A DNA stretch of 64,000 nucleotides from Gammaproteobacteria bacterium (GCA_965203125.1 CBDBBL010000013.1:18383-82382); one strand, 5' to 3'. Counted from the stretch's first letter, positions 1,500 through 48,110 are shown. Program-made: numbers and translations. The notes: generated by a model from the sequence alone, not told the origin.

Positions 1500-1663
1500 T
1501 ATACTCGAAACAGATGGAAATGTCGATTTTCTAACACAAGGAATTCGAGTGGAATCAGATTCAGAAGCTCGAGTAATAGCATCGCTATTGGGAGAGCTTG
1601 TGGAGCTGACTTCTGCCGAATTACTGCAGTTAGAATTCGACATTTCCATCTGTTTCGAGTCTA
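1500..1663. repeat. ERIC-like palindromic miniature element, copy E1 (164 bp)
   Basis: Arms TATACTCGAAACAGATGGAAATGTCGA / TCGACATTTCCATCTGTTTCGAGTCTA (26/27 complementary); central hairpin GAGTAATAGC-ATC-GCTATTGGGA. Confidence 0.9.
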
Positions 1664-1680
1664 GTTATAATAGCCACGTT

Positions 1681-2667
1681 ATGACAAAAAAAACTGGCAT
1701 TTTAATCACGAATCTTGGCACGCCAAGCGCACCAACAAGAACTGCCGTAAAACTTTATCTACAGCAGTTTCTCTCCGACTCTCGCGTCATTCGCCTGCCA
1801 CAACTATTATGGCAACCTATTTTACGTTTACTTATACTCACCACCCGACCACAAAAAACTGCTAAGAATTATCGTAAGATTTGGCTAAAAGATGGTTCGC
1901 CATTGCTGGTGTACTCCCAAACATTAGTCAATAAGCTACAAGACCAGTTGAACTTGCAAACAACTCAGCAACAACCAGTCTGTCAACCAAGCTATCAAGT
2001 TGCTTTAGGCATGACTTATGGTAGCCCAAGTATTGAAAAAGCTTTGCAACAACTCCAACACTGTGATCAATTAATCATATTGCCTCTCTATCCGCAGTAT
2101 AGCGAAACCACCACTGCCGCAACCTTGGATGCCATAACAAGTACGTTTAAAAATCAAGTCACATTACCCAGCTTCACCTTTGTACGTGATTACTATCAAA
2201 ACACCCTCTACCTAAACGCAATTGCAAAATCCATTGAGAGCCAGTGGGTGCAACGAGGCCGCAGTCAACAGCTACTCTTTTCATTTCATGGACTACCTGT
2301 TTCTCAAATAGAGCGTGGAGATCCTTACGAAAAACAATGCCAGTACACTGCCAACAAAATTGCACAACGCCTCAAGCTCAACAACTCACAATGGCAAGTT
2401 GTCTTTCAATCTCGCTTTGGTCCTAAGCAATGGCTAACACCCAGCTGCACTGATACCTTAAAAAAACTACCATCACAAGGAATCAAATCTATCGATATCA
2501 TTTGTCCAGGGTTTGCAGTTGACTGCCTAGAAACTTTAGAAGAAATCGCTTTAAGCAGTCGAGACGTTTTTTTGCAAGCAGGCGGGGAATCCTACCATTA
2601 CATCCGTGCTCTCAACGACAATCAAACTCATATTGATTTACTCACTAACATAATCGAGAACCCATGA
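1681..2667 (+). CDS. hemH: ferrochelatase
   Basis: NLGTP, PLYPQYS, SFHGLP, FQSRFG, DCLETLEEI; homology starts at ATG 1681, not at ORF start 1444. Confidence 0.95.
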   Translation: MTKKTGILITNLGTPSAPTRTAVKLYLQQFLSDSRVIRLPQLLWQPILRLLILTTRPQKTAKNYRKIWLKDGSPLLVYSQTLVNKLQDQLNLQTTQQQPVCQPSYQVALGMTYGSPSIEKALQQLQHCDQLIILPLYPQYSETTTAATLDAITSTFKNQVTLPSFTFVRDYYQNTLYLNAIAKSIESQWVQRGRSQQLLFSFHGLPVSQIERGDPYEKQCQYTANKIAQRLKLNNSQWQVVFQSRFGPKQWLTPSCTDTLKKLPSQGIKSIDIICPGFAVDCLETLEEIALSSRDVFLQAGGESYHYIRALNDNQTHIDLLTNIIENP

Positions 2668-3260
2668 AGAACCAACTTACACAAGGTCTGCAACGATTAA
2701 AATTATCGACAACTGATGAGACATCAAATCAGTTAATCCAATACCTTGAATTGTTGCACAAATGGAATAAAACCTATAATTTAACCGCAGTAAGAGATCC
2801 TGTTGACATGGTGAGCAAGCATCTACTAGATAGTCTTGCCATCAGCCCTTATTTACATGGGAATCGCATTATCGATGTTGGCAGTGGCGCAGGATTGCCA
2901 GGCATTCCGCTGGCATGCATTCATCGTGACAAACAATTCACCTTACTGGACAGTAACGGCAAAAAAACACGCTTTATGCAACATGCTGCACGTACTTTGG
3001 CTTTACACAACATCACCATAGTACAAGAGCGCGTGGAAAAATTTCAGTCGCAAGAACCCTTTGATTCAATCACATGTCGCGCCTTCGCTTCTTTAGAAAA
3101 AATCAAAACACTAACGAGCCATTTATTATCAAGCAATGGTAAAATATTAGCGATGAAAGGAGAAGAAGAGCTCACTAACAACGATGAGTGGAAAACCATT
3201 CAGCTTGATGTACCCTATTTAGCTGCCCAACGTCATGTCATGATATTAGGAGGCATATAA
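2664..3260 (+). CDS. rsmG: 16S rRNA m7G527 methyltransferase
   Basis: WNKTYNLTA, HLLDSL, DVGSGAGLPGIPLA, CRAF. Confidence 0.95.
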   Translation: MKNQLTQGLQRLKLSTTDETSNQLIQYLELLHKWNKTYNLTAVRDPVDMVSKHLLDSLAISPYLHGNRIIDVGSGAGLPGIPLACIHRDKQFTLLDSNGKKTRFMQHAARTLALHNITIVQERVEKFQSQEPFDSITCRAFASLEKIKTLTSHLLSSNGKILAMKGEEELTNNDEWKTIQLDVPYLAAQRHVMILGGI

Positions 3261-3345: not shown

Positions 3346-4182
3346 ATGCTCAAAAAAGTCATCGCGATTACCAACCAAAAAGGTGGCGTGGGTAAAACAA
3401 CCACAGCAGTCAACCTGGCTGCATCATTTGCCGCTATCAAAAAACATACCTTATTAATCGACCTCGACCCGCAGGGTAACGCAACTGTGGGCAGTGGCTT
3501 ATCCAAATCAGAGCTAACTCATAGTGTCACCGAGTTATTACTCAAGGAATCAACCACTGAGCAAGTACTCCAATCGTGTGAGGCAGGTTATGATATTCTA
3601 CCCACTAATGGTGATTTAACCGTTGCAGAAGTTCGGTTACTTCAACAAGACAACCGTGAATACGCATTGAAACAAGCATTGGCAACGTTAGAGCATGAGT
3701 ATGATTTTATCCTAATTGACTGCCCGCCCTCACTCAACATGCTCACCATCAATGCACTGGTTGCTTCTCACAGTGTTTTAATTCCCATGCAATGCGAATA
3801 TTTCGCCCTTGAAGGATTAAAAGCACTCCTAGATACCATTAGGGAACTCCAACAAACCGTTAATCAAACACTCTCTATTGAAGGGTTGCTACGCACACTC
3901 TATGATGGTCGTAACAATCTCACTCAACAAGTATCCGAGCAACTGTTTACACACTTTGGCGATCAAGTCTATCAAACAGTCATTCCACGCAATGTACGCT
4001 TAGCAGAAGCACCGAGCCATGGAAAACCTGCGTTAACGTATGATAAAAACTCACAAGGTGCTCAAGCTTATCTAGCATTGGCTATGGAAATCATCCGTCA
4101 CATTGAATCAACCAATCCATCAAACAAAGAAAAAGGGCAGGATACCTTATACCCATCATCTTTCAAGAAATCGGAATTTTAA
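3346..4182 (+). CDS. parA: chromosome partitioning ATPase ParA/Soj
   Basis: NQKGGVGKTTT, DLDPQGNAT, DCPPSL, IPRNVRLAEAPSHG. Confidence 0.95.
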   Translation: MLKKVIAITNQKGGVGKTTTAVNLAASFAAIKKHTLLIDLDPQGNATVGSGLSKSELTHSVTELLLKESTTEQVLQSCEAGYDILPTNGDLTVAEVRLLQQDNREYALKQALATLEHEYDFILIDCPPSLNMLTINALVASHSVLIPMQCEYFALEGLKALLDTIRELQQTVNQTLSIEGLLRTLYDGRNNLTQQVSEQLFTHFGDQVYQTVIPRNVRLAEAPSHGKPALTYDKNSQGAQAYLALAMEIIRHIESTNPSNKEKGQDTLYPSSFKKSEF

Positions 4183-4310
4183 CAACATGATTTATTGTGG
4201 AATTGAATTTAAAAAGCTGAGCAATAGCAAGCTATTGGGAAGACTTTTAAATTTTAATTGCACCAAAATCATGCCGTTAAAAACCGGATTCTTGAAAGAT
4301 GATGGGTATA
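4148..4310. repeat. ERIC-like palindromic miniature element, copy E2 (163 bp)
   Basis: 22-bp perfect arms TATACCCATCATCTTTCAAGAA / TTCTTGAAAGATGATGGGTATA; centre GAGCAATAGC-AA-GCTATTGGGA; contains the parA stop. Confidence 0.9.
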
Positions 4311-10672: not shown

Positions 10673-10766
10673 TAGGGGATGTGCATGAAATAACTTCCAC
10701 AACTGATCACCTAAAATGAATTCATTTTATACGCCAGTTGCTGAAGTTATTTCATGCACATCCCTA
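10673..10766. repeat. 94-bp nested palindrome (possible MITE), unrelated to the ERIC-like family
   Basis: GGGATGTGCATGAAATAACTTC ... GAAGTTATTTCATGCACATCCC arms, inner CAACTG/CAGTTG, centre TAAAATGAATTCATTTTA, TA at both ends. Confidence 0.85.
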
Positions 10767-17454: not shown

Positions 17455-18588
17455 CTAACCCAACTGCTCTAATCGATCCAACCGCTCCCAAGGAAAGTCC
17501 AACTCATCACGACCAAAGTGCCCATAACTGGCGCTCTGCTGATAAATAGGCTTCAGTAAATCTAGTTGCTCAATAATCGTTTTAGGCCTTAAATCAAACG
17601 TATCTTTTACTCGTGCAATAATCTCAGCCTCAGATATCTTAGCCGTGCCAAACGTCTCAATATATACAGAGGTTGGCTCTGCCACACCAATGGCATAAGA
17701 AACCTGAATTTCACAGCGATCGGCTAATCCAGCAGCCACAATGTGCTTGGCAACATAACGCCCAGCATAAGCTGCAGAACGATCAACTTTTGTAGGATCT
17801 TTACCAGAGAAACAGCCTCCGCCATGGCGCGCCATACCACCATAGGTATCAACAATAATTTTGCGCCCAGTTAAACCACAATCACCCATTGGACCACCAA
17901 TGACAAAGCGCCCTGTAGGGTTAATAAAGTATTGTGTCTCTTTATTCAGCCATTTCTCAGGCAGTACAGGCTTGATAATTTCCTCCATCACCGCCTCTAC
18001 CAAATCATGGTGTGAAATATCAGGAGCATGCTGTGTTGACAAAACCACAGCATCTATTGCAATGGGCTTGTGATTGTCATCATAACGAAAAGTCACTTGG
18101 CTTTTTGCATCAGGTCGCAACCACGGCAAGACTTTATGATGTCGCAGTTCTGCTTGCCGTTTCACCAATTGATGCGCATAGGTGAGCGGTGCAGGCATCA
18201 AAACTTCAGTCTCATTAGTTGCAAAACCAAACATAATGCCTTGATCTCCAGCACCCGTTTCTTCTCCATCAACGCCCTGCGCAATATCTGGAGATTGCTT
18301 GCCAATAGAAGTTAACACCGCACAAGACTCATTATCAAAACCCATCGCTGCATCGGTATAACCAATCTCACCGATCACTTGTCGCGCAATGGCCTCAACA
18401 TCCACCCAAGCATCAGTAGTAATTTCACCAGCAACCAAAACCAGACCAGTTTTAACCATGGTTTCGCATGCAACACGTGCACGTGGGTCTTTCGCTAATA
18501 AACCATCTAATACTGCATCAGAAATTTGATCAGCAATTTTATCTGGGTGTCCTTCTGAAACGGATTCAGAGGTAAACTGGTAAGCCAT
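17455..18588 (-). CDS. metK: S-adenosylmethionine synthetase
   Basis: [43 protein letters not shown]. Confidence 0.98.
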
Positions 18589-18630
18589 CACTCAACCGTT
18601 TGGTGTTTAAACTACCGAAATGCTATCATG

Positions 18631-18711
18631 GATACCCATCGCCTTTCAAGAAATTGATTTTTGACAGGCAGTGCGATAAACACGGGGTTTCACACAAAAT
18701 AACGGGGTATA
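18631..18711. repeat. short, internally deleted ERIC-like copy (81 bp)
   Basis: Left end GATACCCATCGCCTTTCAAGA matches E4 (24773) at 20/21 nt; degenerate right end AATAACG-GGGTATA. Confidence 0.65.
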
Positions 18712-18713
18712 TA

Positions 18714-18950
18714 ATGATCAATAAACAACATATTAAACAACTCGCCGAAGAATTATTCAGCAAACTGCCTGACTCTCTACAATATTCTCACCAAGCCTTA
18801 ATGGAAACTTTTCAGTCTGTATTGTCTAAATCTTTCCAAAAAATGGACTTGGTGACTCGTGAAGAATTTGATACTCAAGTCAAGCTGCTTCATCGATTGG
18901 AAGAAAAAATGATGGAACTGAATAAAACAAGCGGTGGAAAAAAATCATGA
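18714..18950 (+). CDS. ubiK: ubiquinone biosynthesis accessory factor UbiK (YqiC/BMFP)
   Basis: KMDLVTREEFDTQ motif; usual position upstream of comM. Confidence 0.85.
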   Translation: MINKQHIKQLAEELFSKLPDSLQYSHQALMETFQSVLSKSFQKMDLVTREEFDTQVKLLHRLEEKMMELNKTSGGKKS

Positions 18951-18956
18951 GGATTT

Positions 18957-20450: not shown

Positions 20451-20498
20451 TAGTGTATCGCTACCCCCTCGTCGTTCTTCGACTACACACAGAATGAC

Positions 20499-24581: not shown

Positions 24582-24745
24582 TATATCCATCGCAATTGAA
24601 GATTCCGTTTTTTAACTTCATACTTTTGGCGTCATTGACTTAAAAAACCTTCTTCATAGGCTGGCTATGGCTCAGATTTTTAAAGTCAATGCCACTCAAA
24701 ATCATTTTGTTAAAAAAATCGGAATCTTCAATTGCGATGGATATA
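24582..24745. repeat. ERIC-like palindromic miniature element, copy E3 (164 bp, reverse orientation)
   Basis: 26-bp perfect arms TATATCCATCGCAATTGAAGATTCCG / CGGAATCTTCAATTGCGATGGATATA; centre on minus strand GAGCCATAGC-CAG-CCTATGAAGAAGG. Confidence 0.9.
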
Positions 24746-24772: not shown

Positions 24773-24962
24773 TATACCCATCGCCTTTCAAGACGCCAGA
24801 GTTTTAATAAAATGAATTTTAGTAAAATTAGATTTGAAAAATCTAGCCCTAGTCATATTCTGGGTGAGCTATTGCGAAAGTTTTTACCCTGCATATTATT
24901 CATAGGCAATTTTGCAAAACTCATGAAGTTAAAACTCGGTTTCTTGAATGGTGATGGGTATA
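24773..24962. repeat. ERIC-like palindromic miniature element, copy E4 (190 bp, internal expansion)
   Basis: TATACCCATCGCCTTTCAAGA ... TCTTGAATGGTGATGGGTATA; internal GCTATTGCGAAAGTTTTT. Confidence 0.85.
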
Positions 24963-28225: not shown

Positions 28226-28285
28226 GAGTATCTCCTTGGTATGATTCATAGAATTCATATACTAATTATAGATTAAATCCTTCCA

Positions 28286-29212: not shown

Positions 29213-31882
29213 CCTAATCCTTGTTGATGGCTCCAGCTATCTTTATCGTGCTTTTCACGCTATGCCATCACTGAGGAACCATCATGGTCAACCCACAGGT
29301 GCTATTTACGGGGTGATCAATATGGTTAAAAAACTCCAGAGAGGACTACCCAAACACCAACATTGTGATGATATTTGATGCCAAAGGAAAAACCTTTCGT
29401 GACGACTTATACGCCGATTACAAAGCACATCGCCCAAGTATGCCAGAAGAATTACGCCAACAAATCGAACCTATCAACCAAATAATCACCGCAATGGGAT
29501 TACCGCTATTACGGATTGAAGGTGTTGAAGCTGATGATGTCATTGCCACACTTGCATGTGCCGCCAAAGACGGCGGTCAACATACTTTAATTTCAACCGG
29601 TGATAAAGATTTAGCACAACTGGTTTGTTCTCATATCACCTTAATTAACACCATGACAGATACATTATTGAATGAAGATGCTGTCGTCGAAAAATTTGGT
29701 GTACGCCCCGATCAAATCGTCGATTATTTGACGCTGCTAGGTGATAGTGCCGACAATATCCCAGGAGTCCCTAAGGTTGGTAAAAAAACAGCAGAAAAAT
29801 GGTTGCAACAATATCAATCATTAGATGAGCTGCTCAAGCACAGTGATCAAGTCAAAGGAAAAGTGGGTGAGAATTTACGTGAACACCAACAGCAGCTCCC
29901 TTTTTTTCGCCAATTAATAGAAGTTAAAAAAGAGGTCGATGGGGTCTCTTTAACACAACTGATACCATCACCGATCGATGCAGCCGCATTGCTCGAACAT
30001 TACCAACATTTTGAGTTCAAAACTTGGGCAAGTGAACTGATGAACTCCTCAGAACCAGTCACTACAACACGCACAAAAGACTACCAAACAATCACCACGC
30101 TTGGTGAATTAAACAACCTCATCGATCAACTGATGCAAGCCGATGTGTTTGCCTTTGATACCGAAACCACCAGTCTTTGTGTTCAAGATGCACAGTTAGT
30201 TGGCATCTCTTTCTCCCTACAAGCCAATCAAGCTTACTATATTCCATTTTCTCACGATTACCTTGGAGCACCTGAGCAACTTGATCTGGCAACCGTGTTG
30301 GCCCGTTTAAGTCCTGTATTCACTAACACCAAAATCATTAAAGTTGCCCAAAATTTAAAGTATGATTTAAGCATCCTCGCAAGCTACGACATCACCCTTG
30401 CCGAACCGTTGCAAGATACCATGCTGATGTCTTATACCCTCAACAGTACAACCAATAGACATGACCTCGATACACTTGCACTCAAGTATCTTGATATTAA
30501 ACCCGTTTCATTCGAAACGATCGCAGGCAAAGGCAAATCACAATTGACCTTTAATCAAGTTGCCCTCGATATCGCCACTGACTATGCAGCAGAAGATGCT
30601 GACATTACCCTGCAACTATATCATCTATTCACTGAGAAACTATCCGCAACACCGCAAATACTTAACGTCTTAAACACTCTGGATATTCCACTGGTTAAAC
30701 TATTATCACAAATGGAACGTCATGGGGTACTCATTAATCAACAAAAATTACTGCAACAAAGCGGACAACTTGCCAAGCGCTTAACACAACTAGAAGAAGA
30801 GGCCTATATCCTTGCAGACGAACATTTTAACCTAGCATCACCCAAACAATTACAGCATATTTTATTTGAAAAACAACAGCTTCCTATCCAGCAAAAAACA
30901 CCCAAAGGACAACCTTCAACAGCGGAGCATGTCTTACAAGCACTGGCTTTTGATTACCCACTACCCAAGCTTATTCTAGAACATCGTTCATTGAGCAAAC
31001 TAAAATCAACCTATACAGATAAACTACCTCAGCAAGTTCACGCCACCACTGGTCGAGTTCACACCTCTTACAATCAAGCGGTCACTACAACAGGGCGCCC
31101 TGTCTTCATCAAATCCTAATCTACAAAACATTCCGATCAAAACTGCAGCAGGACGACAAATCCGTCAAGCATTTATCGCGCCTGAAGGCTACCAGCTACT
31201 CGCTGCAGATTACTCTCAAGTTGAATTGCGTATCATGGCTCACTTATCACAAGATAACGGATTATTAACGGCCTTTAAAAACGGTGATGATATTCACCGC
31301 GCCACCGCAGCAGAAGTATTTTCTGTACAACCAGTCGATATCACCACAGAACAACGTCGGCATGCCAAAGCCATTAATTTCGGTTTGATGTATGGCATGA
31401 GTGCTTTTGGTCTAGCCAAGCAATTAGAAACAGATCGAAAAACTGCACAAAGCTATATTGACTTATATTTTTCGCGCTATCCAGCGGTCGCAGATTATAT
31501 GGAACAAATGAAACAATTTGCCCATCAACACGGCTTCGTCGAAACCCACTTTGGCCGTAGACTCTACCTTCCTGAAATCAACAGCCCCAATAAGATGCGC
31601 CAACAAGCGGCAGAACGTGCTGCTATCAATGCCCCCATGCAAGGTACCGCAGCTGATTTAATCAAACGTGCCATGATTGATGTCAACCAAGCTATTATAA
31701 CCAGTCAACTAGACATCACGATGACGATGCAAGTCCATGATGAACTGGTATTCGAAATCGCCAACACAAACATAGACCCAGCCAAGACCTTGATTACACG
31801 AGCAATGATCAACGCAAGTGATTTAGACGTGCCAATGCTGGTTGATGTAGGGGTGGGTGATAATTGGGATGAGGCTCATTGA
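29202..31882 (+). CDS. polA: DNA polymerase I (apparent extra bases near 29340 and 31099)
   Basis: [20 protein letters not shown] from 29202; FDTETT exonuclease motif; [14 protein letters not shown] restored by removing one C; [16 protein letters not shown]. Confidence 0.95.
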
Positions 31883-32307
31883 TCATGCAAATATTGCTCA
31901 ACAATTAATACCGCAGACTGAGAGTCAATTGCCTTCTTCTTCAAGGCCTTGTAACCTTTCCTCTCAAACAACTCACTCTTAGCACTTTGTGTCGTTAAAC
32001 GTTCATCTACCTCTGCAACCGGTAACGCGCTATGGTGTTTCAAACGTTTTGCAAATTTTTTAGCACAAAGCGTTAAATGAGGAATATCACTACCATCCAT
32101 ATTAATCGGTATTCCAACCGCCAGTTCCTGTGGTCCCCATTGCTTAACCAACTGCAACAATTGCTCCCAATTTGGAATACCATCTTTAGCTTTCAAGGAC
32201 TGTAGCCCCTGTGCTTGCTGTGTAATTCCCGAGCCAACTGCAACACCAATATGTTTCATCCCAAAATCAAACCCAAGAATAGTTCCTACGTCTGTCACAT
32301 TAAGCAA
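31876..32307 (-). CDS. ruvX: YqgF/RuvX family pre-16S rRNA nuclease
   Basis: [31 protein letters not shown]. Confidence 0.92.
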
Positions 32308-32884
32308 TTCCAGTAAGCGGGTGAAGGTATTTGGTACTATTCGTCAATTGCTTTAACCCTTGTTTCCAGCGATCTTCTACAGGTGTTTCAAATAGTAACG
32401 CTAAATCAGCAGGACAAACCAACCAATCATTACGCTTGATTTCTGCTTCCAGTTTTTTAACAGGCCACCCTGCGTAACCTAAAAACACTATACTGTCTTG
32501 CTGTGCTGGCACCGATAGTTTTTCTAGCTCTTCCTTATCTGATGATAGCTTAACCTGCGTTTCACTCGTTCTTGTTAAAATAAACCCTCTTTCATTAGCC
32601 ACGGGGCCACCTCTCATCACAGGCGGGTCAACATCCATCACTGTACGACTACGATAGGAAAAACCAAGATGTTTCATCAAACGTTTCAGACCAATATTCA
32701 TTGGCTTATTAATAATAAAGCCACAGGCTCCTTCTTTTTCATCATGCTCAGCCACATAAATAACGGTCCGGCGAAAATAACGATCCTTTAGGTGGGGTGC
32801 TGCCAACAAAAAGCAGTTTTCAAATTGAGTAATAATATGAGTCATAATAGACAACATTGTAGCAATAGACTTTGCTTTTTTCAC
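32300..32884 (-). CDS. yqgE: YqgE/AlgH family protein
   Basis: [12 protein letters not shown]...GA.GFIINKP, GGPV, LGYAGW...LE.E...N.W; true start probably a downstream Met. Confidence 0.9.
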
Positions 32885-32931
32885 GGGTCATGTTACATTC
32901 TTTAATACTATGTTTTAGAGAGTAAACCCCC

Positions 32932-34497
32932 ATGTCATATCAAAGCCAACAATACATAGATTTAACACGTGATGAACTAATCACCGCCGCACTCGACCAC
33001 CATGAAGGCAAACTTGCAAACAACGGGGCTTTCTCCACTGAAACTGGCAAGCGCACTGGAAGATCACCCAAAGACCGTTATATCGTAAAGGATCACCTCA
33101 CTCAAAATACGGTTGAATGGGGAGCTGTTAATCAAGCGATGTCTGCTGTGTGTTTTGAAACGCTATGGCAAAACGCATCTAAGCAACTAAAAACAAAGTC
33201 TCAATTTGTTTCTCATCTCGCCGTTGGTGCAGACCCAAAACACCAGCTACGACTTAAGCTCACAACAGCAACAGCATGGCATAGTCTCTTTGCTAATAAC
33301 ATGTTCATTCGTGATGCCTACGACACTTCGCAGTGGTGTAAAAATAACGACTGGGAACTGCTTCATGATGACAGCCTAACACTCATACCCAACGAAACCA
33401 TTAATGGTGATACGATCAATGGTGATGGCGTTGTTGCTATCTGCTTTAGTCAACGACGTGTCTTATTTTGTGGCATGCGTTATGCAGGTGAAATCAAGAA
33501 ATCGATGTTTTCCGTGTTGAACTTTCTCTTAACCGATCGTGATGTCTTACCAATGCACTGTGCCGCTAATGTCGGAGAAAGCGGTGATGTTTCATTATTC
33601 TTTGGTCTATCGGGTACAGGGAAAACCACCTTGTCTGCAGATACTGAACGATTCCTCATTGGTGATGATGAACATGGCTGGAGTAGTCATGGAGTATTTA
33701 ACTTTGAGGGAGGATGTTATGCCAAGTGCATCGATCTATCACAAGAAAAAGAGCCTTTAATCTGGCAAGCAATTCGCCATGAAGCAATTCTTGAAAATGT
33801 CGTACTCGATGAAACTGGCAACCCTGATTACAAGGATGATCGCTTGACACAAAATTCACGCTGCTCTTACCCCTTAACACATATCAAAAAACGTGTTGCT
33901 GAAAATCGCGCTGGACACCCCAATGCAGTTATCTTCCTGACTTGTGATCTTTATGGTGTATTACCACCAGTTGCCATACTATCACCCGAGCAAGCTGCCT
34001 ATCATTTTCTCAGTGGCTATACAGCACTCGTTGGTAGTACAGAAATGGGTGGTAACAGTGGTGTTAAGCCAACTTTCAGCACCTGCTTTGGCGCACCATT
34101 TTTTGCACGCCCACCTGCAGTCTATGCAAATCTGCTAATGAAACGACTACAAGAAACTGGTGCGCAAGTTTATCTAGTCAATACAGGCTGGACAGGTGGC
34201 GCCTATGGTCAAGGTGGTACACGTTTTGACATCCCTGTCACTCGTACAGTGATTCATGCCATTCAGTCAGGGCAACTGTTAAATACAACGACACAAACCA
34301 TTTTAAACGGCTTTGATTTAGTCGTCCCGACAAAACTCGACGGTGTTGATAGTCAATTATTAAACCCTACATCAATTTGGAAAAACAATGAGGATTTCAA
34401 TACAGCACTAACAACATTACGCAACCAATTTGCTGACAACTTTAAACGGTTCGATGTCGATGACTCAATCAAACAAGCAGGACCACATCATGGCTGA
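32932..34497 (+). CDS. pckA: phosphoenolpyruvate carboxykinase (ATP)
   Basis: [45 protein letters not shown]. Confidence 0.97.
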
Positions 34498-34852
34498 GGT
34501 TACAGTCTATGGAATTACCAACTGTGATCAAGTTAAAAAGGCGAAAACGTGGCTCACTACTCATGAAATCAGCTACCAACTTCATGATTTTCATCGTGAA
34601 GGCGTCTGTGCTGAATTAATCACTTCATGGCTTAAGCACATCGATCTTCCGCAGTTATTAAACAAAAAAAGTACCACATGGCGCGGACTATCTGAACAAG
34701 AAAAGTTATTATCAGAATCAGCTGATTTAATTGCATTAATGATCAAATATCCAACCTTGATAAAACGCCCTGTGCTATGCATTAAAGATACCATACTAGT
34801 AGGATACCAACCTGATCGTTACGGAGAAATCATGGATACCCAAACCACTTGA
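34490..34852 (+). CDS. ArsC/Spx/YffB family protein
   Basis: [33 protein letters not shown]. Confidence 0.9.
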
Positions 34853-34998
34853 AGATGTCGAGGTTTTAACATAATGAGCTTGAACAGAATCAGATTTACA
34901 AGATTGAGCAATAGCACCGCTATTGGGAAAGCTTTTAGATTTGCATTCTGCCAAGCTCATGCCGTTAAAATCCGGCGTCCTCGGGTGGTTTGAGTATA
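34835..34998. repeat. ERIC-like palindromic miniature element, copy E5 (164 bp)
   Basis: GATACCCAAACCACTTGAAGATGTCG ... CGGCGTCCTCGGGTGGTTTGAGTATA; centre GAGCAATAGC-ACC-GCTATTGGGA. Confidence 0.88.
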
Positions 34999-34999
34999 G

Positions 35000-35806
35000 A
35001 TGGCAACGTATGCCATTGGGGATGTGCAAGGCTGTTTCAAGGAGTTAATGAGCTTACTTGAAAGCATTAACTACGATCAAAGAAAAGACAAACTGTGGTT
35101 TGTTGGTGACTTAGTTAACCGCGGCCCAGACTCACTCAAGGTGTTACGCTTTGTTAAAGAGATTAACGCAGGTGTTGTGCTAGGCAACCATGATTTACAT
35201 CTGTTAGTACAACACGATACAGGCGATACTAGATACACAGCCCCCTCTGATACTTTAGAACAAGTGTTATTGGCACCCGATGTTGACAAACTGTTGCGAT
35301 GGCTCAGGCATCAACCGCTATTAGCTTATTTACCACAGCATGCAACCCTGTTAGTGCATGCAGGCATCCTTCCAAACTGGACCCAAGAACAAGCACTAGC
35401 GTATGCAGAAGAAGCCCATCAAGCACTGACATCCGAGAACTATCAGTATTACCTGAAAGGTCTTTACGGAAATACTCCAAGCCAATGGGATGAGTCGCTA
35501 ACAGGACTTGATCGATTTCGAACGATCATCAATGTGCTAACCCGCATGCGAGCGATTGATCGTAAAACACATGCCTTAAATTTATCATACAGCGGTGATG
35601 TGGAAAATTGCCCTAAGGAAGATATCGCTTGGTTTCAAGCCCCCTCAAACATTCAGGAGAAAATTGTTTTTGGTCATTGGTCTGCATTAAATGGCGTCAC
35701 GCATATACCTGATAGAATTGCGATTGATACTGGGTGTGTTTGGGGTGGAAAACTGACAGCTTATGAACTTGAATTTTCAAGTGGATTTTCTTACGCTCAA
35801 GCATGA
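35000..35806 (+). CDS. apaH: symmetrical bis(5'-nucleosyl)-tetraphosphatase
   Basis: MATYAIGDVQGC, GDLVNRGPDS, LGNHDLH, FGHWSAL, DTGCVWG. Confidence 0.96.
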   Translation: MATYAIGDVQGCFKELMSLLESINYDQRKDKLWFVGDLVNRGPDSLKVLRFVKEINAGVVLGNHDLHLLVQHDTGDTRYTAPSDTLEQVLLAPDVDKLLRWLRHQPLLAYLPQHATLLVHAGILPNWTQEQALAYAEEAHQALTSENYQYYLKGLYGNTPSQWDESLTGLDRFRTIINVLTRMRAIDRKTHALNLSYSGDVENCPKEDIAWFQAPSNIQEKIVFGHWSALNGVTHIPDRIAIDTGCVWGGKLTAYELEFSSGFSYAQA

Positions 35807-35934
35807 TAACAAAATACGGTTCTGTCGCAAAAATGTGAGATGGTGAAGATATAATGCTACCAGATATTCGCACAAATAATTTGAGGTATAATTTCTAAAT
35901 GAGTAATGTAATTGATCATTTAGGAGATAAAAAA

Positions 35935-36150
35935 ATGACTAAACGAGGAAAAAGCTACACAGCAGAGTTCAAAACCAAAGTGGTTTTAGAACTGTTGGAA
36001 GGCGAAATGACGCTTAATCAAATCAGCTCAAAATATGAAGTGACACCAAAATCGTTAAAAGAGTGGCACAAAACATTTTTAACAAACGCTAGTTTAGCGT
36101 TCGACAAAAGTAAAGCAAAGGCAAAGATACACAGAAACAAGTACAAGTGA
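35935..36150 (+). pseudogene. IS3-family OrfA (HTH) fragment
   Basis: KSYTAEFKTKVVLELLEGEMTLNQISSKYEV; no OrfB follows. Confidence 0.8.
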
Positions 36151-37046
36151 GTCGACCACATGACCTATTCTGCAAAACAACCATGCAGAATATTCCTGCT
36201 GCTGTTGATTTTTTGAAACATCATTTACCTGCTGAATTTAGATCTCGCATTGATTTTAGTGAGATCGACATTGAACCAACTAATCTTGTCACTGCTGAAT
36301 TACGGGAATTTCACACTGACGTTGTTTATAGCTGTAAAATTGATGGTAGAACAGGCTATGTTCTCACCCTAGTGGAGCATCAAAGCACTCCTGACAAAAT
36401 GATGGCTTTTAGAAAATTACAGTACAACGTCGTCCTCATGGATAATCATCTCAAAAAAGGGAATAAAAAATTACCTGTGATCTTCAACCTCTGTCTGTAC
36501 AATGGCACGGATTCACCTTACCCCGAATCCACTTGCTTATTTGAATGTTTTGATCATGTTGAATTAGCCAAACAAGTCTTATTTTCACCATTTACATTGA
36601 TTGACCTCACCACCATACCCGATGATGAAATCAAACAACATGGCTTAGCTTCTACCATGGAAATGCTTCTAAAGCATGCTCGATTAAGAGATATGAGGTC
36701 AGCTATCACATCACTTATTAAAGATCATTTGATCCAAGATGCCATTGAAAAATTAGGTGAAAATTACCTCAAATCTGTGCTAACATACATGTTATCGGTA
36801 GGTGAGGATAAAAAAGACAATAGGGAAGCTGCCAAGGAAATTCTTGATAATCTTACCCATGCCTTACCTGAACAGGAGAATTTAATTATGACTTTTGCAC
36901 AAACTATGACTTATGACGCCAAACAAGAAGGTATGCAACAAGGTATACAACAAGGCGTTGATAGTGTACTTGAAGCATTAAAAAAGCAAGGTGTTGACCC
37001 ATCATTATTGGCACAAGCTAAAAACGATGCTTTGAAACAAGATTAA
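36147..37046 (+). CDS. Rpn/YhgA-family PD-(D/E)XK nuclease
   Basis: PHDLFCK, TDVVYSC, LVEHQSTPDKMMAFR, LPVIFNLCLYNG, C-terminal MTFA..EGMQQGIQQG. Confidence 0.92.
   Translation: MSRPHDLFCKTTMQNIPAAVDFLKHHLPAEFRSRIDFSEIDIEPTNLVTAELREFHTDVVYSCKIDGRTGYVLTLVEHQSTPDKMMAFRKLQYNVVLMDNHLKKGNKKLPVIFNLCLYNGTDSPYPESTCLFECFDHVELAKQVLFSPFTLIDLTTIPDDEIKQHGLASTMEMLLKHARLRDMRSAITSLIKDHLIQDAIEKLGENYLKSVLTYMLSVGEDKKDNREAAKEILDNLTHALPEQENLIMTFAQTMTYDAKQEGMQQGIQQGVDSVLEALKKQGVDPSLLAQAKNDALKQD
36888..37046 (+). CDS. putative internally initiated small Rpn C-terminal protein (RpnS-like, 52 aa)
   Basis: AGGAG at 36874-36878, 9 nt before the in-frame ATG of MTFAQ. Confidence 0.6.
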   Translation: MTFAQTMTYDAKQEGMQQGIQQGVDSVLEALKKQGVDPSLLAQAKNDALKQD

Positions 37047-37066
37047 TTATTAGGAATATTGCAAAC

Positions 37067-37351
37067 ATGAGCGAACCAAAAACAAAGATTTTCGTTGGTA
37101 GCCTAAGCTTTGATGTAAGAAGCAATCATTTGGAAGATCATTTTTCACAATACGGCAAAGTAGTTGATGCAATTGCACTGATGGAGAAAGACAACCCTAA
37201 TCGAGCTAGAGGGTTTGGCTTTGTGACATTTGCTGAGGAATCTTCAGCTCAAAATGCGATTAATGGCTCAAATGGTAAAGAGCTAGAAGGTCGAGCAATG
37301 AAAGTTAGCATTGCGGAGAATAAGCCTAAACGTAACAACGATGGCTGGTAA
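37067..37351 (+). CDS. single-RRM RNA-binding protein
   Basis: RNP2 IFVGSL, RNP1 RGFGFVTF, L.GR.MKV..A. Confidence 0.93.
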   Translation: MSEPKTKIFVGSLSFDVRSNHLEDHFSQYGKVVDAIALMEKDNPNRARGFGFVTFAEESSAQNAINGSNGKELEGRAMKVSIAENKPKRNNDGW

Positions 37352-37406
37352 AATATCGCTATAAGCCATATTTGGCGCGCTTTTATGCCATGTCCAGTAA
37401 TAATAT

Positions 37407-38324
37407 TTACCAGATATTTACTATTCTTCTATAAAAGAAGTCACTCTCTTCACAATCTTTAAATATAATCCTTGCTTCAGGAATACTTCTAGCTCTTCTC
37501 ATACGACTAATATCTGGAGAAGACGGACATGAATCACATTCTCTAGACTCAACGAGTAGAGACTTTAACCGTCTATGCCTATGTAATTGGGGAGAAAAAT
37601 AATTCGTCACATAACTGCTACTAATAGGACTATTCGAAGCACTAGTGTTTGGACTAACACATCCTTCTAGTTTTGCCGCAAGCTCGAAAAAAACACCCAT
37701 AGCAGCAGGTCTCAAATTTAAATACTCATTCACAACCTCCTTTAGCTTAGGGTGCATAAAAAACCCATTGGCTATCTCTCCACATAAATTAACGAAATCT
37801 CGAGGTAAAAACAACCTCAGCTCTGTTAAGGTATTTATAGTCTCCTTGAGAGAGTGCTGCCTATAAAATGAATTCATATATACATAAGAAATCCATTCAT
37901 TAGAAATAAGTTCACCAGAAAATGTCAAACAAGAAATTAATCTAAAAAACACCTGTTTGTCTGTTAACCCTTCATTTATACAACCGATATTCAGCGAATT
38001 ACCTAAAATACTATCTATCAATAACCAACAGACACACAATTCCTGCTTGTCATCTGAAAAACCACTCAAGAAAAGCGCATTCTCATCAAATAAACGCATG
38101 GATTCCATTTGGTATGCATTCAAATAATCACTTGCAGATGCTACAGGTATATTCTTATCATGCATATACTTGATAGAAGCTACGGCCAGCATGATTGACA
38201 GCTTGTCGAGCTTGAGCATTCCATCAACTAATACTTTGACGCTATCTAGCCTATTGTAATAATCAGGAAGAATAGAGCAAAAATAATGTACAGCCGCCTC
38301 TTGATTTTCAAACTTATTGTACAC
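37407..38324 (-). CDS. hypothetical effector-like protein, possible degenerate NB-ARC helical/winged-helix region plus Ser/Pro/Arg tail
   Basis: AAGGAG 6 nt before GTG; patterns LSI.LA...I...YL..Y, L.CL.F....I, FMHP.L.E. Confidence 0.55.
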   Translation of the reverse strand: MYNKFENQEAAVHYFCSILPDYYNRLDSVKVLVDGMLKLDKLSIMLAVASIKYMHDKNIPVASASDYLNAYQMESMRLFDENALFLSGFSDDKQELCVCWLLIDSILGNSLNIGCINEGLTDKQVFFRLISCLTFSGELISNEWISYVYMNSFYRQHSLKETINTLTELRLFLPRDFVNLCGEIANGFFMHPKLKEVVNEYLNLRPAAMGVFFELAAKLEGCVSPNTSASNSPISSSYVTNYFSPQLHRHRRLKSLLVESRECDSCPSSPDISRMRRARSIPEARIIFKDCEESDFFYRRIVNIW

Positions 38325-39699: not shown

Positions 39700-40054
39700 T
39701 GTTTACCTTAATGTTTGCGCTCTATTCACCATAACATATGTAGCATATAATATAAATAAGCAATAATACATAGTCGTATAAATATATAATCGTTTGGCAC
39801 ATGGATGCACTGGCTGATCTCTCAATGAAAATGAAGGGTTTTAATTTTATTAAGATACAATTATCTCTTGTGGTAATTTTAGATCACCAAACTCATTAGA
39901 ACTCTATATTGTAAACATTGATATGCAATACAGGTTTTTTGCTCAACTAAGAAGCTAAGCAAGTTTATTGCCAGAGGTTAGATACAACAAGTAGTTAGAG
40001 CTTTAAATTCTGGAATCAAACTTCCTCAAACGCGACACCTACCCTACTGTTTAC

Positions 40055-40115
40055 TTAAACGATCGTTTAAATGCACAACAAATTCAGAAACACTGCTTAA
40101 TAAACGTTCGTTTAA
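40055..40115. promoter_or_regulatory. pair of palindromic protein-binding sites (res-subsite-like)
   Basis: Perfect TTAAACGATCGTTTAA (40055-40070) and near-perfect TAAACGTTCGTTTAA (40101-40115), upstream of a resolvase. Confidence 0.5.
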
Positions 40116-40255
40116 GTTACAATCCCAATTTCACCTGAAATCCTTCGATTTTGTGTATCTTATCCCGTTCTTTTTTTATGACAACTAAAGGGATATCTCC
40201 AATAGATAAAGATACAGACTAATTTAACTAGAAACACCAATGCTCATTGATGTTG

Positions 40256-45440: not shown

Positions 45441-46717
45441 TGACCGCAAATTCGCTTACGACAAAACAAACTAAACAGGCTTGGATTGTTTGTTTAACCG
45501 CCTCTAGCTTCTTTTTCTATGAATTTATTCAAATGAATATTTTCAACGCCATCAATACAGATGTGATGCATGCTTTTTCACTCGATGCTGCAGGGCTTGG
45601 CCTACTTTCTTCACTTTATTTTTGGTGTAGCGTACTGTTTCTGATTCCAGCGGGAACCATTTTAGATCGATTTTCTGCAAAAAAACTCATGTTATTTGCA
45701 ATGCTGATTTGCATCATCGGCACTTTCTTCTTTGCACAAACACACAGCTTCTGGATTGCAGCTGTTAGCCGATTTATATGTGGGTTTGGCAGTGCCTTTT
45801 GTTTCTTAAGTAATGTTCGCTTGATCTCTCGCTGGTTTCCCGCATCAAAACAAGCTTTTATGATTGGGCTCCTCGTAACCATTGCGATGCTTGGTGGCAT
45901 CGTTGCTCAAACACCTTTAGTATTATTGGTACACCACCTTGGTTGGCGACCTGCTTTAATGTTAGATGCAGCCTTGGGTGTGCTGCTATCCATTTTCATT
46001 ATCCTCTTTGTACAAGACTATCCTAGCCATAAACAAAAAGAAATTACGGAGCAAGCAAATACACTTAATGAGATGGGCTACTGGAAAAGTCTCAAACTTG
46101 CACTATTTCGCTCTCAAAATTGGTTTGGCGGTATTTATACCTGTATGCTTAACTTACCAGTTGCATTGTTCGGAGGCATTTGGGGAACACTTTACTTAAT
46201 GTCCGCAGAAAATATTACCAGGGCACAAAGCTCCATTGCAACTTCAGCCATTCTATTGGGTACGATTCTAGGCTCACCAATCACTGGATGGCTATCAGAT
46301 CATCTTGGAAAACGTAAACAAATCATGATTGTTGGTTCTCTACTATCACTGGTTATCATTAGCTGGTTACTGTTAAATTCTGGCATGGGTTTTATTCCGA
46401 CTATCTTAATTTGTTTTCTACTTGGCTTGGTTACCAGCACACAAGTCATCAGTTACACGCTCATTGCAGAAACAAATCCTGCACACCTCACGGGCACAGC
46501 TGTCGCCATTGTCTCAATGAGTGCCATGGCTGGCTATGCCATCTTTATTCCCATCTTTGGCTGGCTAATGGATCTAGCAGTAACACATCAAACATTACTA
46601 CACCAAGCGACATACCACTATGTTTTAAGCGATTTCCGCTTCGCGATCTGGATTTTTCCTATCGGCTTTATACTCAGCCTGATTGCTAGCTTTAAACTAC
46701 AAGAGTCAAAATCATGA
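45440..46717 (+). CDS. MFS transporter (Pht-like), paralogue 3
   Basis: FFFYEFIQMN.FN, AGTILDRFS.K, RLISRWFP. Confidence 0.9.
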   Translation: MTANSLTTKQTKQAWIVCLTASSFFFYEFIQMNIFNAINTDVMHAFSLDAAGLGLLSSLYFWCSVLFLIPAGTILDRFSAKKLMLFAMLICIIGTFFFAQTHSFWIAAVSRFICGFGSAFCFLSNVRLISRWFPASKQAFMIGLLVTIAMLGGIVAQTPLVLLVHHLGWRPALMLDAALGVLLSIFIILFVQDYPSHKQKEITEQANTLNEMGYWKSLKLALFRSQNWFGGIYTCMLNLPVALFGGIWGTLYLMSAENITRAQSSIATSAILLGTILGSPITGWLSDHLGKRKQIMIVGSLLSLVIISWLLLNSGMGFIPTILICFLLGLVTSTQVISYTLIAETNPAHLTGTAVAIVSMSAMAGYAIFIPIFGWLMDLAVTHQTLLHQATYHYVLSDFRFAIWIFPIGFILSLIASFKLQESKS

Positions 46718-47955
46718 AACGAGCGATTGTCATTATTTTAGACTCTCTAGGGATCGGATACAGCGCAGATGCTGAGAAGTTTAATGACGTTAATGCCAAT
46801 ACATTTGCATCCATTGCAACTCATGCACATAAAGGATTGGCCAATAAAAATGGTGTTCGAAAAGGTAAACTCGAGCTTCCTAATCTCACGCAACTTGGCT
46901 TATATCACGCCCTATCTGACTCCAGTCAAATCAACTATGATTATGTTGATTACCAACAACATCCAATTGCCAGCTATGGCTTCGCACAAGAAAAAAGCTT
47001 TGGTAAAGATACCCCCAGTGGACACTGGGAAATTGCAGGTGTTCCCTGTGAATTTGATTGGGGATATTTTTCTGCCACTGCTCATAACCATGAAAGCTGC
47101 TTTCCACAAACCTTACTCAATGACCTGATTGAGCAAGGAGATATCCCTGGCATATTAGGGAACTGTCACGCTTCTGGCACAGAAATTATTGCACGCCTGG
47201 GTGAAAATCATATTCAAACAGGAAAGCCTATCGTTTATACCTCAGCAGATAGCGTCTTCCAAATTGCAGCACATGAAAAGTACTTTGGTGTCGATAAGTT
47301 GCACCAACTTTGTCAACTTGCAAGAAAATTGGTTGATCCTTACAATATTGGACGCGTCATCGCTCGGCCATTTGTTGGTGATTCAGCTGAAAACTTCAAA
47401 CGCACGGCCAATCGAAAAGATATTGCAATACCACCACCAGCACCCACCTTATTAGATCAACTAACCAATCAAAATGGTCAAGTCATTGCCATTGGCAAAA
47501 TTGCAGATATCTTCGCACATCGTGGCATCACTCATACATTAAAAGGAAAAAACAACACAGAGCATGTCAAACAAACTATTGAAGCTATGAATACATATCA
47601 ACAAGATAAAACTCTCATTTTCACTAATCTTGTTGACTTTGACTCAGAGTACGGCCACCGCAGAGACGTTGCTGGCTACGCGAATGCACTCGAGGAATTT
47701 GACACACTACTACCTAACATTTTGGCTGCCCTTGAACCTGATGATCTATTGATTTTATCGGCTGATCATGGCTGTGACCCAACCTGGCCTGGTTCTGACC
47801 ACACAAGAGAGTACATCCCTGTCTTGTGTTATGGTAAAAACCATCAAGCTAAATCATTAGGAAAGCGAAATACTTTTGCTGATATTGGTCAAAGTATTGC
47901 AAGCCACTTAAAGATGAAACCACTTACGCACGGCTCTAGTTTTTTGTATACTTAA
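46714..47955 (+). CDS. deoB: phosphopentomutase
   Basis: ILDSLGIG, GKDTPSGHWE, YTSADSVFQIAAHE, NLVDFDSEYGHRRD, ADHGCDP, HTREYIP. Confidence 0.96.
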   Translation: MKRAIVIILDSLGIGYSADAEKFNDVNANTFASIATHAHKGLANKNGVRKGKLELPNLTQLGLYHALSDSSQINYDYVDYQQHPIASYGFAQEKSFGKDTPSGHWEIAGVPCEFDWGYFSATAHNHESCFPQTLLNDLIEQGDIPGILGNCHASGTEIIARLGENHIQTGKPIVYTSADSVFQIAAHEKYFGVDKLHQLCQLARKLVDPYNIGRVIARPFVGDSAENFKRTANRKDIAIPPPAPTLLDQLTNQNGQVIAIGKIADIFAHRGITHTLKGKNNTEHVKQTIEAMNTYQQDKTLIFTNLVDFDSEYGHRRDVAGYANALEEFDTLLPNILAALEPDDLLILSADHGCDPTWPGSDHTREYIPVLCYGKNHQAKSLGKRNTFADIGQSIASHLKMKPLTHGSSFLYT

Positions 47956-48110
47956 CGAAGATGAAGATGTCAATTTTTTAGCCAAATGATTTTGAGTAGC
48001 ATTGGATTTAAAAAATTGAACCATAGTCAATCTATGTCGAAAGTTTTTACATTCAATGATGCCAAAAGCATGAAGCAAAAAAATCGACATCTTCATCTTC
48101 GTTGAGTATA
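47947..48110. repeat. ERIC-like palindromic miniature element, copy E6 (164 bp)
   Basis: TATACTTAACGAAGATGAAGATGTC ... GACATCTTCATCTTCGTTGAGTATA; centre GAACCATAGT-CAA-TCTATGTCGAAAG; contains the deoB stop. Confidence 0.9.

Follow-up and report, generated by a model that had tools for sequence, protein, structure and literature searches.

The two arms of the palindromic repeats in this gammaproteobacterial genome co-vary far beyond chance, and genuine compensatory change persists within the subfamilies of the repeat, where it tracks lineage divergence and not decay in place. The repeats are not a new class of element; they belong to a superfamily of TA-flanked MITEs of 163-164 bp that are palindromic over their whole length. 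We consider them to be probably non-autonomous MITEs of the IS630/Tc1-mariner type, with the CCC end subtype, in which the pairing of the arms would be kept in the lineages that propagate.

Anatomy and abundance of the repeats

The unit reads TA-TACCC ... GGGTA-TA and measures 163-164 bp including both TA. It forms an imperfect palindrome from end to end and can fold into a hairpin of ~69 bp with a tip that is kept in sequence (AATAG-loop-CTATT); a listing of the ends shows no palindrome within the ends themselves. The same AATAG-loop-CTATT tip is also found at the center of MITEs with unrelated ends. The elements have a polarity, with 591 G:T against 187 A:C on one strand and with asymmetric flanks.

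The first-pass annotation of the window (the whole stretch of 64,000 nucleotides that was analyzed) listed six full copies and a short one. All seven are present (Table 1), with the lengths that follow from their coordinates, and their N7 blocks read as given there. A matching complement in the opposite arm was likewise found in five of the six full copies; the exception is the copy at 24773-24962, which has N7 mismatches (U:U, columns 14/179) and a central insertion of ~27 nt. An inverted-repeat search of the window gave complementary outer arms of 21-51 nt in five of the six full copies. The outer arms of the copy at 34835-34998 were not among the matches listed, and their pairing is visible in the RNAalifold alignment, where the six full copies form a single hairpin of 69 pairs, in 31 of which both sides have changed with pairing kept. 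This copy ends 1 nt short of a start codon at its right side, and the copy at 47947-48110 overlaps the upstream gene at its stop codon. The short copy is a stump which retains ~22-35 nt of the left end, ~22 nt of it matching the B-type left end of other copies, and the terminal GGGGTATA; its interior is gone, and it was missed by the family profile at E <= 0.01.

Table 1. Copies of the repeat in the window
Position	Strand	Length (bp)	Type	Location
1500..1663	.	164	full MITE copy, minor subfamily C	between divergent gshA / hemH
4148..4310	.	163	full MITE copy, small lineage (n=3)	parA-parB gap; parB start 21 nt on
18631..18711	.	81	B-type stump	between metK and BMFP-family gene
24582..24745	.	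164	full MITE copy, small lineage (n=3)	first of pair in MFS transporter gene-ubiC gap
24773..24962	.	190	subfamily B copy	right end abuts ubiC start
34835..34998	.	164	subfamily A copy	between pckA and metallophosphoesterase gene
47947..48110	.	164	full MITE copy, lineage n=2	phosphopentomutase-like gene-dsbB gap

In the source genome (an assembly of 1.65 Mb, 97.9% complete), the family profile gave 336 matches at ~199 loci, 110 of them full length, and the end pattern matched 119 + 133 times, whereas its reversed control matched 1 + 5 times. The full copies range from 133 to 193 bp, and 79 are of 163-164 bp (43 of 164 bp and 36 of 163 bp). They cluster into subfamilies A (n=44), B (n=42) and C (n=5, every one of 164 bp) and 14 small lineages (n=19); subfamily E is additional, with 11 strict copies, each of 163 bp. 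The consensus of each subfamily is a single hairpin, with minimum free energies of -101.8 (A), -72.9 (B) and -85.1 (C) kcal/mol. Two length classes were observed, 160-166 and 179-185 bp, corresponding to ~10 bp extra per arm. The designation as a MITE-type family is borne out by the small size (<200 bp), the absence of coding sequence and the 110 full copies. However, the arms are not unique to each copy, as had been supposed. The N7 block differs in every window copy because the window sampled six different lineages; thus, among 110 full copies genome-wide, the copy-specific arms are a sampling effect. As for the choice between copy-by-copy arms and ordinary subfamilies, the latter apply in part, since the two main arm types hold 44 and 42 copies.

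Nine copies of subfamily A lie inside open reading frames, according to crude longest-ORF gene calls, all in a single orientation and phase. Domains were recognized on both sides of the insert in murF, an enoyl-CoA hydratase gene, pepN and aroA; in the murF alignment a gap of 64 residues stands against one of 10, a net gain of 54 amino acids.

Covariation of the arms

In the alignment of the six full copies, 89.5% of the cells are paired, against 77.9 +/- 1.2 after shuffling, and 31 pairs are changed on both sides, against 15.1 +/- 2.5; neither value was reached in any of 500 shuffles. When the partner was slid by 1-3 columns, only 35-43% of the cells were paired, with 4-8 pairs changed on both sides. 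The same holds within the subfamilies, where cells kept after change on both sides number 82 in A (28.8 +/- 3.9 shuffled, maximum 42 in 2000) and 43 in B (9.2 +/- 2.6 shuffled, maximum 19), with 2-15 for slid partners. The proposal that pairing and length are kept more than sequence thus stands, in the source genome and across eight genomes.

One possible explanation is correction in place: a mutation that strikes one arm of an inserted copy would be erased or transferred to the other arm, either through template switching in the quasi-palindrome as it is replicated or through mismatch repair once the hairpin is extruded; this would keep resident copies complementary without selection. Compensated pairs private to single copies are indeed in excess, 17 in A (0-8, mean 4.5, with slid partners) and 20 in B (4-8, mean 5.5). 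Pairs changed on both sides are complementary in 82 of 93 cells (A) and 53 of 62 (B), compared with ~40% for slid partners, 6-9 compensated pairs occur together in some copies, as expected if a single tract had been copied, and the core copies hold one (A) and five (B) private compensated pairs. However, the compensated pairs go with the lineage markers and not with the load of one-sided changes: private and lineage-shared compensated pairs correlate (rho 0.55, p = 1e-4 in A; rho 0.30, p = 0.05 in B), whereas private compensated pairs and private one-sided changes do not (rho 0.06 and 0.19). Furthermore, 18 of the 44 A copies and 20 of the 42 B copies have none despite 2-18 one-sided changes, including copies with 10-18 such changes. 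On average ~4-6% of the pairs are broken, and therefore correction in place, if any, must be slow. We regard this explanation as unlikely.

The pairing could also be selected by the host, if transcripts of the repeats form a long duplex that is used in mRNA processing, stability or termination. Co-transcription is inevitable for the many copies that lie in operon gaps (such as parA-parB and the gap before dsbB), the hairpins are very stable, and transcripts of ERIC and Correia elements are RNase targets according to excerpts of two papers (PMC3184786, PMC2229807). However, G:U pairs are as frequent in host sense as in antisense (307 and 303 in 85 copies), and private one-sided transitions are equally divided between G:T and A:C (17:17 in A, 12:12 in B). 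Copies in co-directional gaps point either way (10 same and 17 opposite in A, 24 same and 10 opposite in B), copies are also found inside genes, copies decay, and no Rfam family matched the 64-kb window at the gathering score. Selection on a long RNA duplex in place, which the first-pass annotation had suggested beside arm-to-arm copying, is thus unsupported and appears very improbable. Since compensatory change follows the lineages and there is no G:U bias, our results argue instead for a constraint, or for arm copying, during propagation.

Ends, target sites and related elements

TA is present on both sides of 73 of the 110 full copies, and 11 tandem junctions (GGGTA-TA-TACCC) share one TA. 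In the flanking TA, the outer base deviates at 37 of 220 ends and the inner base at 5 of 220. Insertion may duplicate the TA; these data are explained equally well by a unit of 162 bp that enters between T and A and duplicates nothing. No empty TA site was found for the source genome, where contigs from public runs break at the copies and gave no empty-site joint.

The only DDE_3 gene of the genome (E = 4.8e-32) is located within a TA-flanked IS of 959 bp, in which an HTH_Tnp_IS630 ORF and the DDE_3 ORF overlap at G_GGA_AAG. The first 14 bases of this IS are identical to the end of subfamily E (14/14). This IS could supply the transposase for subfamily E. Neither an IS with CCC-type ends nor a second IS630 transposase was found in the source assembly, and subfamilies A-C are thus left in this genome without a visible transposase partner. 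In another genome (G139), an IS630-type IS ending in TATACCAATCACA occurs beside MITEs ending in TATACCCATCACA, with 12 of 13 end bases matching.

The covariance model of the family matched 16 of 150 other genomes, one genome being taken per family of the class; this model is structure-aware, so the pairing in these matches is partly selected for. TATACCC ends occur in the copies read from 11 of the 16 genomes. Elements of the 164-bp class abound in one genome of another genus (G020) and were not seen in its sister (G151). The family may be mobile at present.

The likeness of the ends to ERIC is confirmed. In E. coli K-12, elements of 127 bp (253339-253465 and 803322-803448), which we take to be ERIC from their length and core sequence, the record carrying no annotation of them, end in TATACTC-N7-TTC(A/G)AG, and TA-TAC(C/T)C-N7-TT(C/G)(A/G)AG is common to them and to the present repeats as the terminal sequence of ERIC/IRU (MITEEc1). 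However, the interior and the length are unlike those of ERIC, as had been noted: the repeats are 163-164 bp long against 127 bp, the interiors do not align, a blastn search of 5,426 E. coli genomes was negative, and the covariance model found none on K-12, so the repeats were rejected as ERIC proper. The N7 blocks, complementary here, are non-complementary in the K-12 copies read. In excerpts of the literature, ERIC is, like the present repeats, TA-flanked, non-coding, intergenic and able to form a hairpin, and it also occurs within genes (PMC3184786, PMC2229807).

Judged by sequence, the TA-TACCC ends match the CCC-type group of IS630 elements that, in an excerpt of PMC6267812, includes ERIC (MITEEc1) and MITEPlu5 of Photorhabdus luminescens; the family is thus of a kind already described, and not possibly undescribed as first thought. 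As excerpted, that study places a CCC trinucleotide adjoining the terminus in this group, with a TA target and its duplication, and relates MITEPlu5 to ERIC. It attributes to MITEPlu5 a predicted fold of extreme strength, a copy number in the hundreds with a single fixed length and few identical copies, mobilization in trans by IS630-type transposases (the CCC-type IS being ISPlu3/8/19), and mobility shown by 47 indels between strains (PMC6267812). The excerpted MITEPlu5 is 123 bp long, and its comparison with the MITEs of the source genome is by description only.

Similarly, RUP of Streptococcus pneumoniae was tied to IS630-Spn1 by the similarity of terminal inverted repeats and by TA targets, according to an excerpt of PMC2229807, and the same reasoning was applied here to link subfamily E with the resident IS. 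RUP is set apart by description (107 bp, Firmicutes, stop codons in all frames) and is presumably unrelated in sequence. The Rickettsia palindromic elements (RPE), also separated by description (Alphaproteobacteria, ~100-150 bp), are palindromic repeats found in frame in housekeeping genes in an excerpt of PMC10969869, as are our nine A copies in ORFs.

REPINs resemble the present repeats in that ends and length are kept, the interior is free but paired, and compensatory changes are common, as excerpted from PMC3116915, but their building blocks are REP palindromes and RAYT (HUH) enzymes move them, whereas the source MITEs have IS630-like ends. A search for Y1 transposase/RAYT (PF01797) gave no match in the 97.9%-complete genome and matched 6 of 14 control genomes; with no PF01797 match and no palindromic ends, REPIN/RAYT membership was rejected. 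Mobilization as a single strand (HUH/RAYT or IS200/IS605-like), in which one strand folds and moves as a hairpin as in REPINs, would account for ends that are conserved, an interior that varies freely yet stays paired, a length that is fixed and a strand polarity, here seen as 12 G:T against 0 A:C pairs on one strand of the consensus sequences and as flanks that are asymmetric by element orientation in the source genome and in G020; however, with no such gene, with ends that are not short palindromes and that match IS630-family elements and ERIC, it is extremely improbable.

Pairing and propagation

For non-autonomous IS630/Tc1-mariner-type MITEs, the following course may be proposed. A transposase supplied in trans would bind the conserved end, and the unit would be cut and pasted at TA sites of narrow intergenic gaps; subfamily A would also have inserted in frame inside genes (+54 codons). 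The family has split into many lineages, the arms of which have diverged yet stayed complementary, and complementarity would be kept in the lineages still propagating. Either only copies able to fold into a cruciform or hairpin may have moved efficiently, or repair linked to transposition may have rewritten one arm on the template of the other; arm-to-arm copying, if it happens, would occur mostly in propagating lineages. Once inserted, the copies would decay by uncompensated one-sided changes, and the host would keep no RNA structure.

The kind of element is known, and the repeats are a new form of it with unusual diversity. The ends on which a DDE cut-and-paste enzyme acts are double-stranded, and we know of no reason for such an enzyme to require pairing over the whole length. 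A bolder possibility, to which we give only a small chance, is that the whole-length hairpin is a working part of transposition and no by-product: the MITEs would be recognized or moved in folded, strand-specific form (as a cruciform or a single-strand hairpin), with the AATAG-loop-CTATT tip as a docking site and a stem length quantized by helical turns. If true, transposition of the folded form would explain why covariation is confined to propagating lineages, why consensus mismatches are G:T only on one strand with orientation-specific flanks, and why MITEs with unrelated ends have a common tip, and such a requirement would be new for a DDE cut-and-paste family.

Copies in the window and across the genome

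In the window, six full elements and one short element were read where the first-pass annotation had placed them (see table), and their variable 7-nt blocks (N7) near each end are as written there. Complementary outer arms of 21-51 nt were recovered in five of the six full copies by a repeat search; the 25 pairs that the search listed do not include the outer arms of the remaining copy, at 34835. RNAalifold placed the six full copies in one 69-pair hairpin, in which 31 pairs show a kept change on both sides, i.e. both partners differ and still pair. Paired cells amounted to 89.5% versus 77.9 +/- 1.2% in shuffles, none of 500 of which reached the observed value, and fell to 35-43% when the partner columns were slid. 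Thus, the arms co-vary beyond chance, as had been proposed, and the one exception that had been pointed out, the copy at 24773, also stands. The short element is a stump; it shares with other copies some 22 nt of a B-type end, and it was missed by the family profile. A comparison of the 64-kb window with Rfam models gave no family match at the gathering score.

Coordinates of the palindromic elements and associated features
Location	Feature	Length	Remarks
Window 1500-1663	full copy	164 bp	
Window 4148-4310	full copy	163 bp	21 nt before the parB start codon
Window 10676-10764	second palindromic family, short form	89 bp	unrelated ends (GGGATGTGCATGAAATAAC...)
Window 18631-18711	short element	81 bp	
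Window 24582-24745	full copy	164 bp	
Window 24773-24962	full copy	190 bp	N7 mismatches; about 27 extra central bases
Window 34835-34998	full copy	164 bp	1 nt before the phosphoesterase start codon
Window 40048-40117	small palindromic repeat		arms ACTTAAACGATCGTTTA / TAAACGTTCGTTTAAGT
Window 47947-48110	full copy	164 bp	
Source genome, contig C1, L011:1013-1971	IS630-family element	959 bp	TA-flanked
Source genome, contig C17:365-2569 (L095)	ORF across a subfamily A copy	734 aa	dUTPase domain and four-domain phosphoglucomutase
E. coli K-12 253339-253465	element bracketed by the end pattern	127 bp	
E. coli K-12 803322-803448	element bracketed by the end pattern	127 bp	

A profile made from the six copies, iterated once, was searched over the whole source genome (a 1.65-Mb draft in 19 contigs, about 40% G+C, in which the window is C13:18383-82382) and gave 336 matches at 199 loci, 110 of them full-length; the units make up about 1% of the genome. 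Measured from TATACCC to GGGTATA, 43 of the 110 are 164 bp, 36 are 163 bp, and the other 31 range from 133 to 193 bp. Clustering of the full copies at 25% distance yielded two large subfamilies, A with 44 copies (mode 164 bp, identity averaging 0.87) and B with 42 (mode 163 bp, identity averaging 0.85), a subfamily C with 5 copies of 164 bp each, and 14 small lineages with 19 copies in total (144-168 bp). Subfamily E has other ends (TATAGCTAACACGG...) and 11 strict copies, all of 163 bp. The consensus of each subfamily folds into a single long hairpin. The six window copies belong to six different groups of this clustering, which is why each of their N7 blocks looked unique; the suggestion that arms are unique to each copy does not hold for A and B, in which many identical copies share an arm variant.

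According to crude ORF calls, 75 of the 110 copies lie in co-directional gaps, 17 in divergent and 7 in convergent ones; 10 others lie within ORFs, and the last one is at the edge of a contig. The units occupy operon gaps (e.g., parA-parB) and touch start or stop codons, and gene callers stretch ORFs into them. In the window, longest-ORF starts such as 4299 and 1444 extend into the repeats, and the automatic start calls beside the copies at 4148 and 34835 are probably too long.

Two other repeats were noticed in the window. The second palindromic family has about eight other loci in the genome; its long forms are about 176 bp and carry a central CAATAGC-loop-GCTATTG tip, the same as in the main family. 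The small palindromic repeat has partial copies, 97-98% identical, on contigs C10 and C14.

Relation to ERIC, IS630 elements and other genomes

ERIC is a classic repeat whose origin, to our knowledge, is not settled. Neither blastn of a subfamily A copy over 5,426 E. coli genomes nor a covariance model of the six copies on the K-12 chromosome gave a match. The end pattern, in contrast to these searches of the full unit, recurs on K-12 at sites bracketing 127-bp elements that end in TATACTC-N7-TTC(A/G)AG and which, by their core and length, we take to be ERIC; the ERIC-type end architecture named in the first-pass annotation was therefore correct. The reported length of ERIC is 127 bp (PMC3184786). 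When the K-12 elements were aligned with the present copies, about 25 bases at each end corresponded and the interior did not, so that, judged from this alignment, the family is ERIC-like by its ends and is not an ERIC member. TA-flanked palindromic bacterial MITEs shorter than 200 bp are well described (PMC2229807, PMC3184786). Compensatory changes with fixed length are reported for REPINs (PMC3116915) and bcr1 (PMC3184786), and in-frame insertion for RPE (PMC10969869), which we set beside the family by description; the QMITE families of Coxiella are set apart by their size and their direct repeats (PMC5896051). No paper on this 163-164-bp family was found in open-access full text. The kind of element is already described, and the 163-164-bp family itself is new as far as the open-access literature shows.

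PMC6267812 describes IS630 'CCC-type' ends with a duplicated TA target, and a 123-bp, strongly folding MITEPlu5 as a relative of ERIC (MITEEc1); on that description, the present family is part of this group of IS630 'CCC-type' MITEs. The search for an autonomous IS with the same ends, which had been proposed, gave a candidate for subfamily E and none for the CCC-type ends, no IS of which was found in this genome. The sole IS630-family element of the genome shares its first 14 end bases with the subfamily E end, a motif that occurs 25 times in the genome. Its transposase is in two ORFs (135 and 159 aa), one with HTH_Tnp_IS630 and one with DDE_3 (E = 4e-32), which overlap at G_GGA_AAG. Frameshifting is used in the IS630 family, according to PMC5009743. 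Since the overlap holds a canonical -1 slippery heptamer, the two-ORF transposase gene may, from its sequence, be intact rather than broken. Among plasmid relatives, the closest are IS630-family elements of Piscirickettsia salmonis, with 65% nucleotide identity. In G139, another genome of the class, an IS630-type element with the end TATACCAATCACA stands beside MITEs with the end TATACCCATCACA. A subfamily B copy gave only chance-level blastn matches to plasmids, and no Y1/RAYT transposase gene was found in this genome. Two half-copies 2 kb apart on contig C18 were considered as an autonomous element and rejected, being stumps without relation to each other on either side of two ordinary genes.

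Exact patterns of the arm (present in 50 of the 110 copies) and of the centre (49 of the 110) had no match in 185,579 species genomes, which means no more than that these exact forms are private to the lineage; the covariance model found diverged relatives. With this model, the scan of relatives that had been called for covered 150 other genomes of the class, each from a different family, and gave matches in 16; copies were read from 15 of the 16 (G113 was left out). TATACCC-type ends occur in 11 of them (G139, G020, G060, G115, G083, G068, G086, G140, G036, G048, and G125); most full copies read from these have an AATAG-loop-CTATT tip, and their arms are unlike between genomes and paired in all. 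Four others (G107, G076, G047, and G100) have other ends and the same or a similar tip. By length, the copies of other genomes form two classes (160-166 and 179-185 bp), and a single copy has 216 bp. Within one genus, G020 has many members of the 164-bp class, and its sister G151, in which that class was not seen, has only 183-185-bp members. No copy of 167-178 bp was seen outside the source genome; between the two classes each arm differs by about 10 bp, equal to one helical turn. Seventeen representatives from eight genomes were aligned; of the 53 pairs predicted from this alignment, 42 have kept changes on both sides, and 88.2% of its cells are paired, versus 66.8 +/- 1.1% in shuffles (0 of 500 as high) and 35-45% with slid partners, although the pairing of these copies is partly selected for, because they were found with a structure-aware model. 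The family ties ERIC to a much wider IS630-type set in distant lineages.

Ends, target and insertion

The unit ends are TA|TACCC and GGGTA|TA. A TA at each side is found in 73 of the 110 copies, and 11 tandem junctions read GGGTA-TA-TACCC. Over the 220 ends, the outer TA bases deviate in 37 and the inner ones in 5. In element orientation, the right flank is TA in 30 of the 110 copies, often followed by C/T and then C; the first two right-flank positions are T in 51 and A in 65 copies, whereas the left flank has no such enrichment. The same asymmetry is seen in 9 of 11 copies from G020 (loci L118-L128). The near-palindrome is also polar in its pairs: the model strand has 591 G:T versus 187 A:C pairs, and the consensus sequences of A, B, and C together have 12 G:T pairs and no A:C pair. 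Nine subfamily A copies lie inside ORFs, in a single orientation and phase throughout. MurF has 64 unaligned residues versus 10 in a solved homologue (net +54), and an enoyl-CoA hydratase alignment has 61 versus 10. A net gain of 162 bp fits a 160-bp unit with TA duplication and a 162-bp unit between T and A alike. At L095, a single ORF runs through a subfamily A copy, which may link two genes in frame; alternatively, the ORF may be an artefact of gene calling.

Neither empty sites nor orthologous copies were found in the 20 nearest genomes available, which share only the class, and the repeat part was unmatched in all of them. In metagenome loci selected by ParA, the best identity was 63%, with one weak central match among 85 outside loci, and the flank in the sister of G020, at 67% identity, is too diverged for an empty site to be fixed there. 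Contigs from four public runs cover the window stretch thinly, stop at the copies and hold no empty-site joint; the joints listed connect different copies. Contigs of all runs end at copies, and the MITE family thus fragments assemblies. Two of the runs (X1-X4, window 18001-38000) are labelled 'sponge metagenome' and have short pieces identical to the window. None of the public runs listed is an RNA run holding the stretch.

Origin of the covariation

With the 3' letters permuted within each subfamily, kept changes on both sides numbered 28.8 +/- 3.9 in subfamily A (maximum 42 in 2000 shuffles) and 9.2 +/- 2.6 in B (maximum 19), versus 82 and 43 observed; pairs changed on both sides yet broken numbered only 11 and 6. 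Of the cells changed on both sides, 82 of 93 (A) and 53 of 62 (B) are complementary at the true partner (the B count is higher here because the consensus-pair filter was not applied), versus 2-15 with partners slid by 1-5 columns. Compensated pairs private to a single copy numbered 17 in A, versus 0-8 with slid partners (mean 4.5), and 20 in B, versus 4-8 (mean 5.5). They correlate with lineage-shared compensated pairs (A, rho 0.55 and p = 1e-4; B, rho 0.30 and p = 0.05) and are uncorrelated with one-sided changes private to a copy (rho 0.06 in A, 0.19 in B). Copies with lineage markers have 16 (A) and 13 (B) private compensated pairs versus 29 and 24 one-sided changes; among those without markers, the 19 A copies have 1 and the 25 B copies have 5, versus 24 and 34 one-sided changes (Fisher p = 0.003 for A and 0.03 for B). 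No compensated pair occurs in the copies that have 10-18 one-sided changes. We read these results as compensation arising in propagating lineages: pairs would be compensated, or one arm recopied from the other, in lineages that still propagate, and resident copies would then undergo plain decay. Correction in place in resident copies, to which the few compensated pairs of marker-free copies could be assigned, may be a minor component.

Another explanation is that the hairpins are kept for an RNA function in the host. Where the direction of transcription is defined (85 copies), G:U pairs are 307 in sense and 303 in antisense; private one-sided transitions to G:T and A:C are 17:17 (A), 12:12 (B), and 8:5 (C); and orientation in co-directional gaps is mixed (A, 10 same and 17 opposite; B, 24 same and 10 opposite). 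The evidence is against an RNA function, and the family shows clearly that covariation need not point to an RNA gene.

Selfish palindromes can show very strong covariation (0 of 500 shuffles) and can be mistaken by screens for structured RNAs. The balance of G:U and A:C relative to transcription, and the division of compensated pairs into private and lineage-shared ones, are cheap ways to separate the two. Furthermore, the many natural variants of arm, length, and tip are material to ask why MITEs are palindromic along their whole length.
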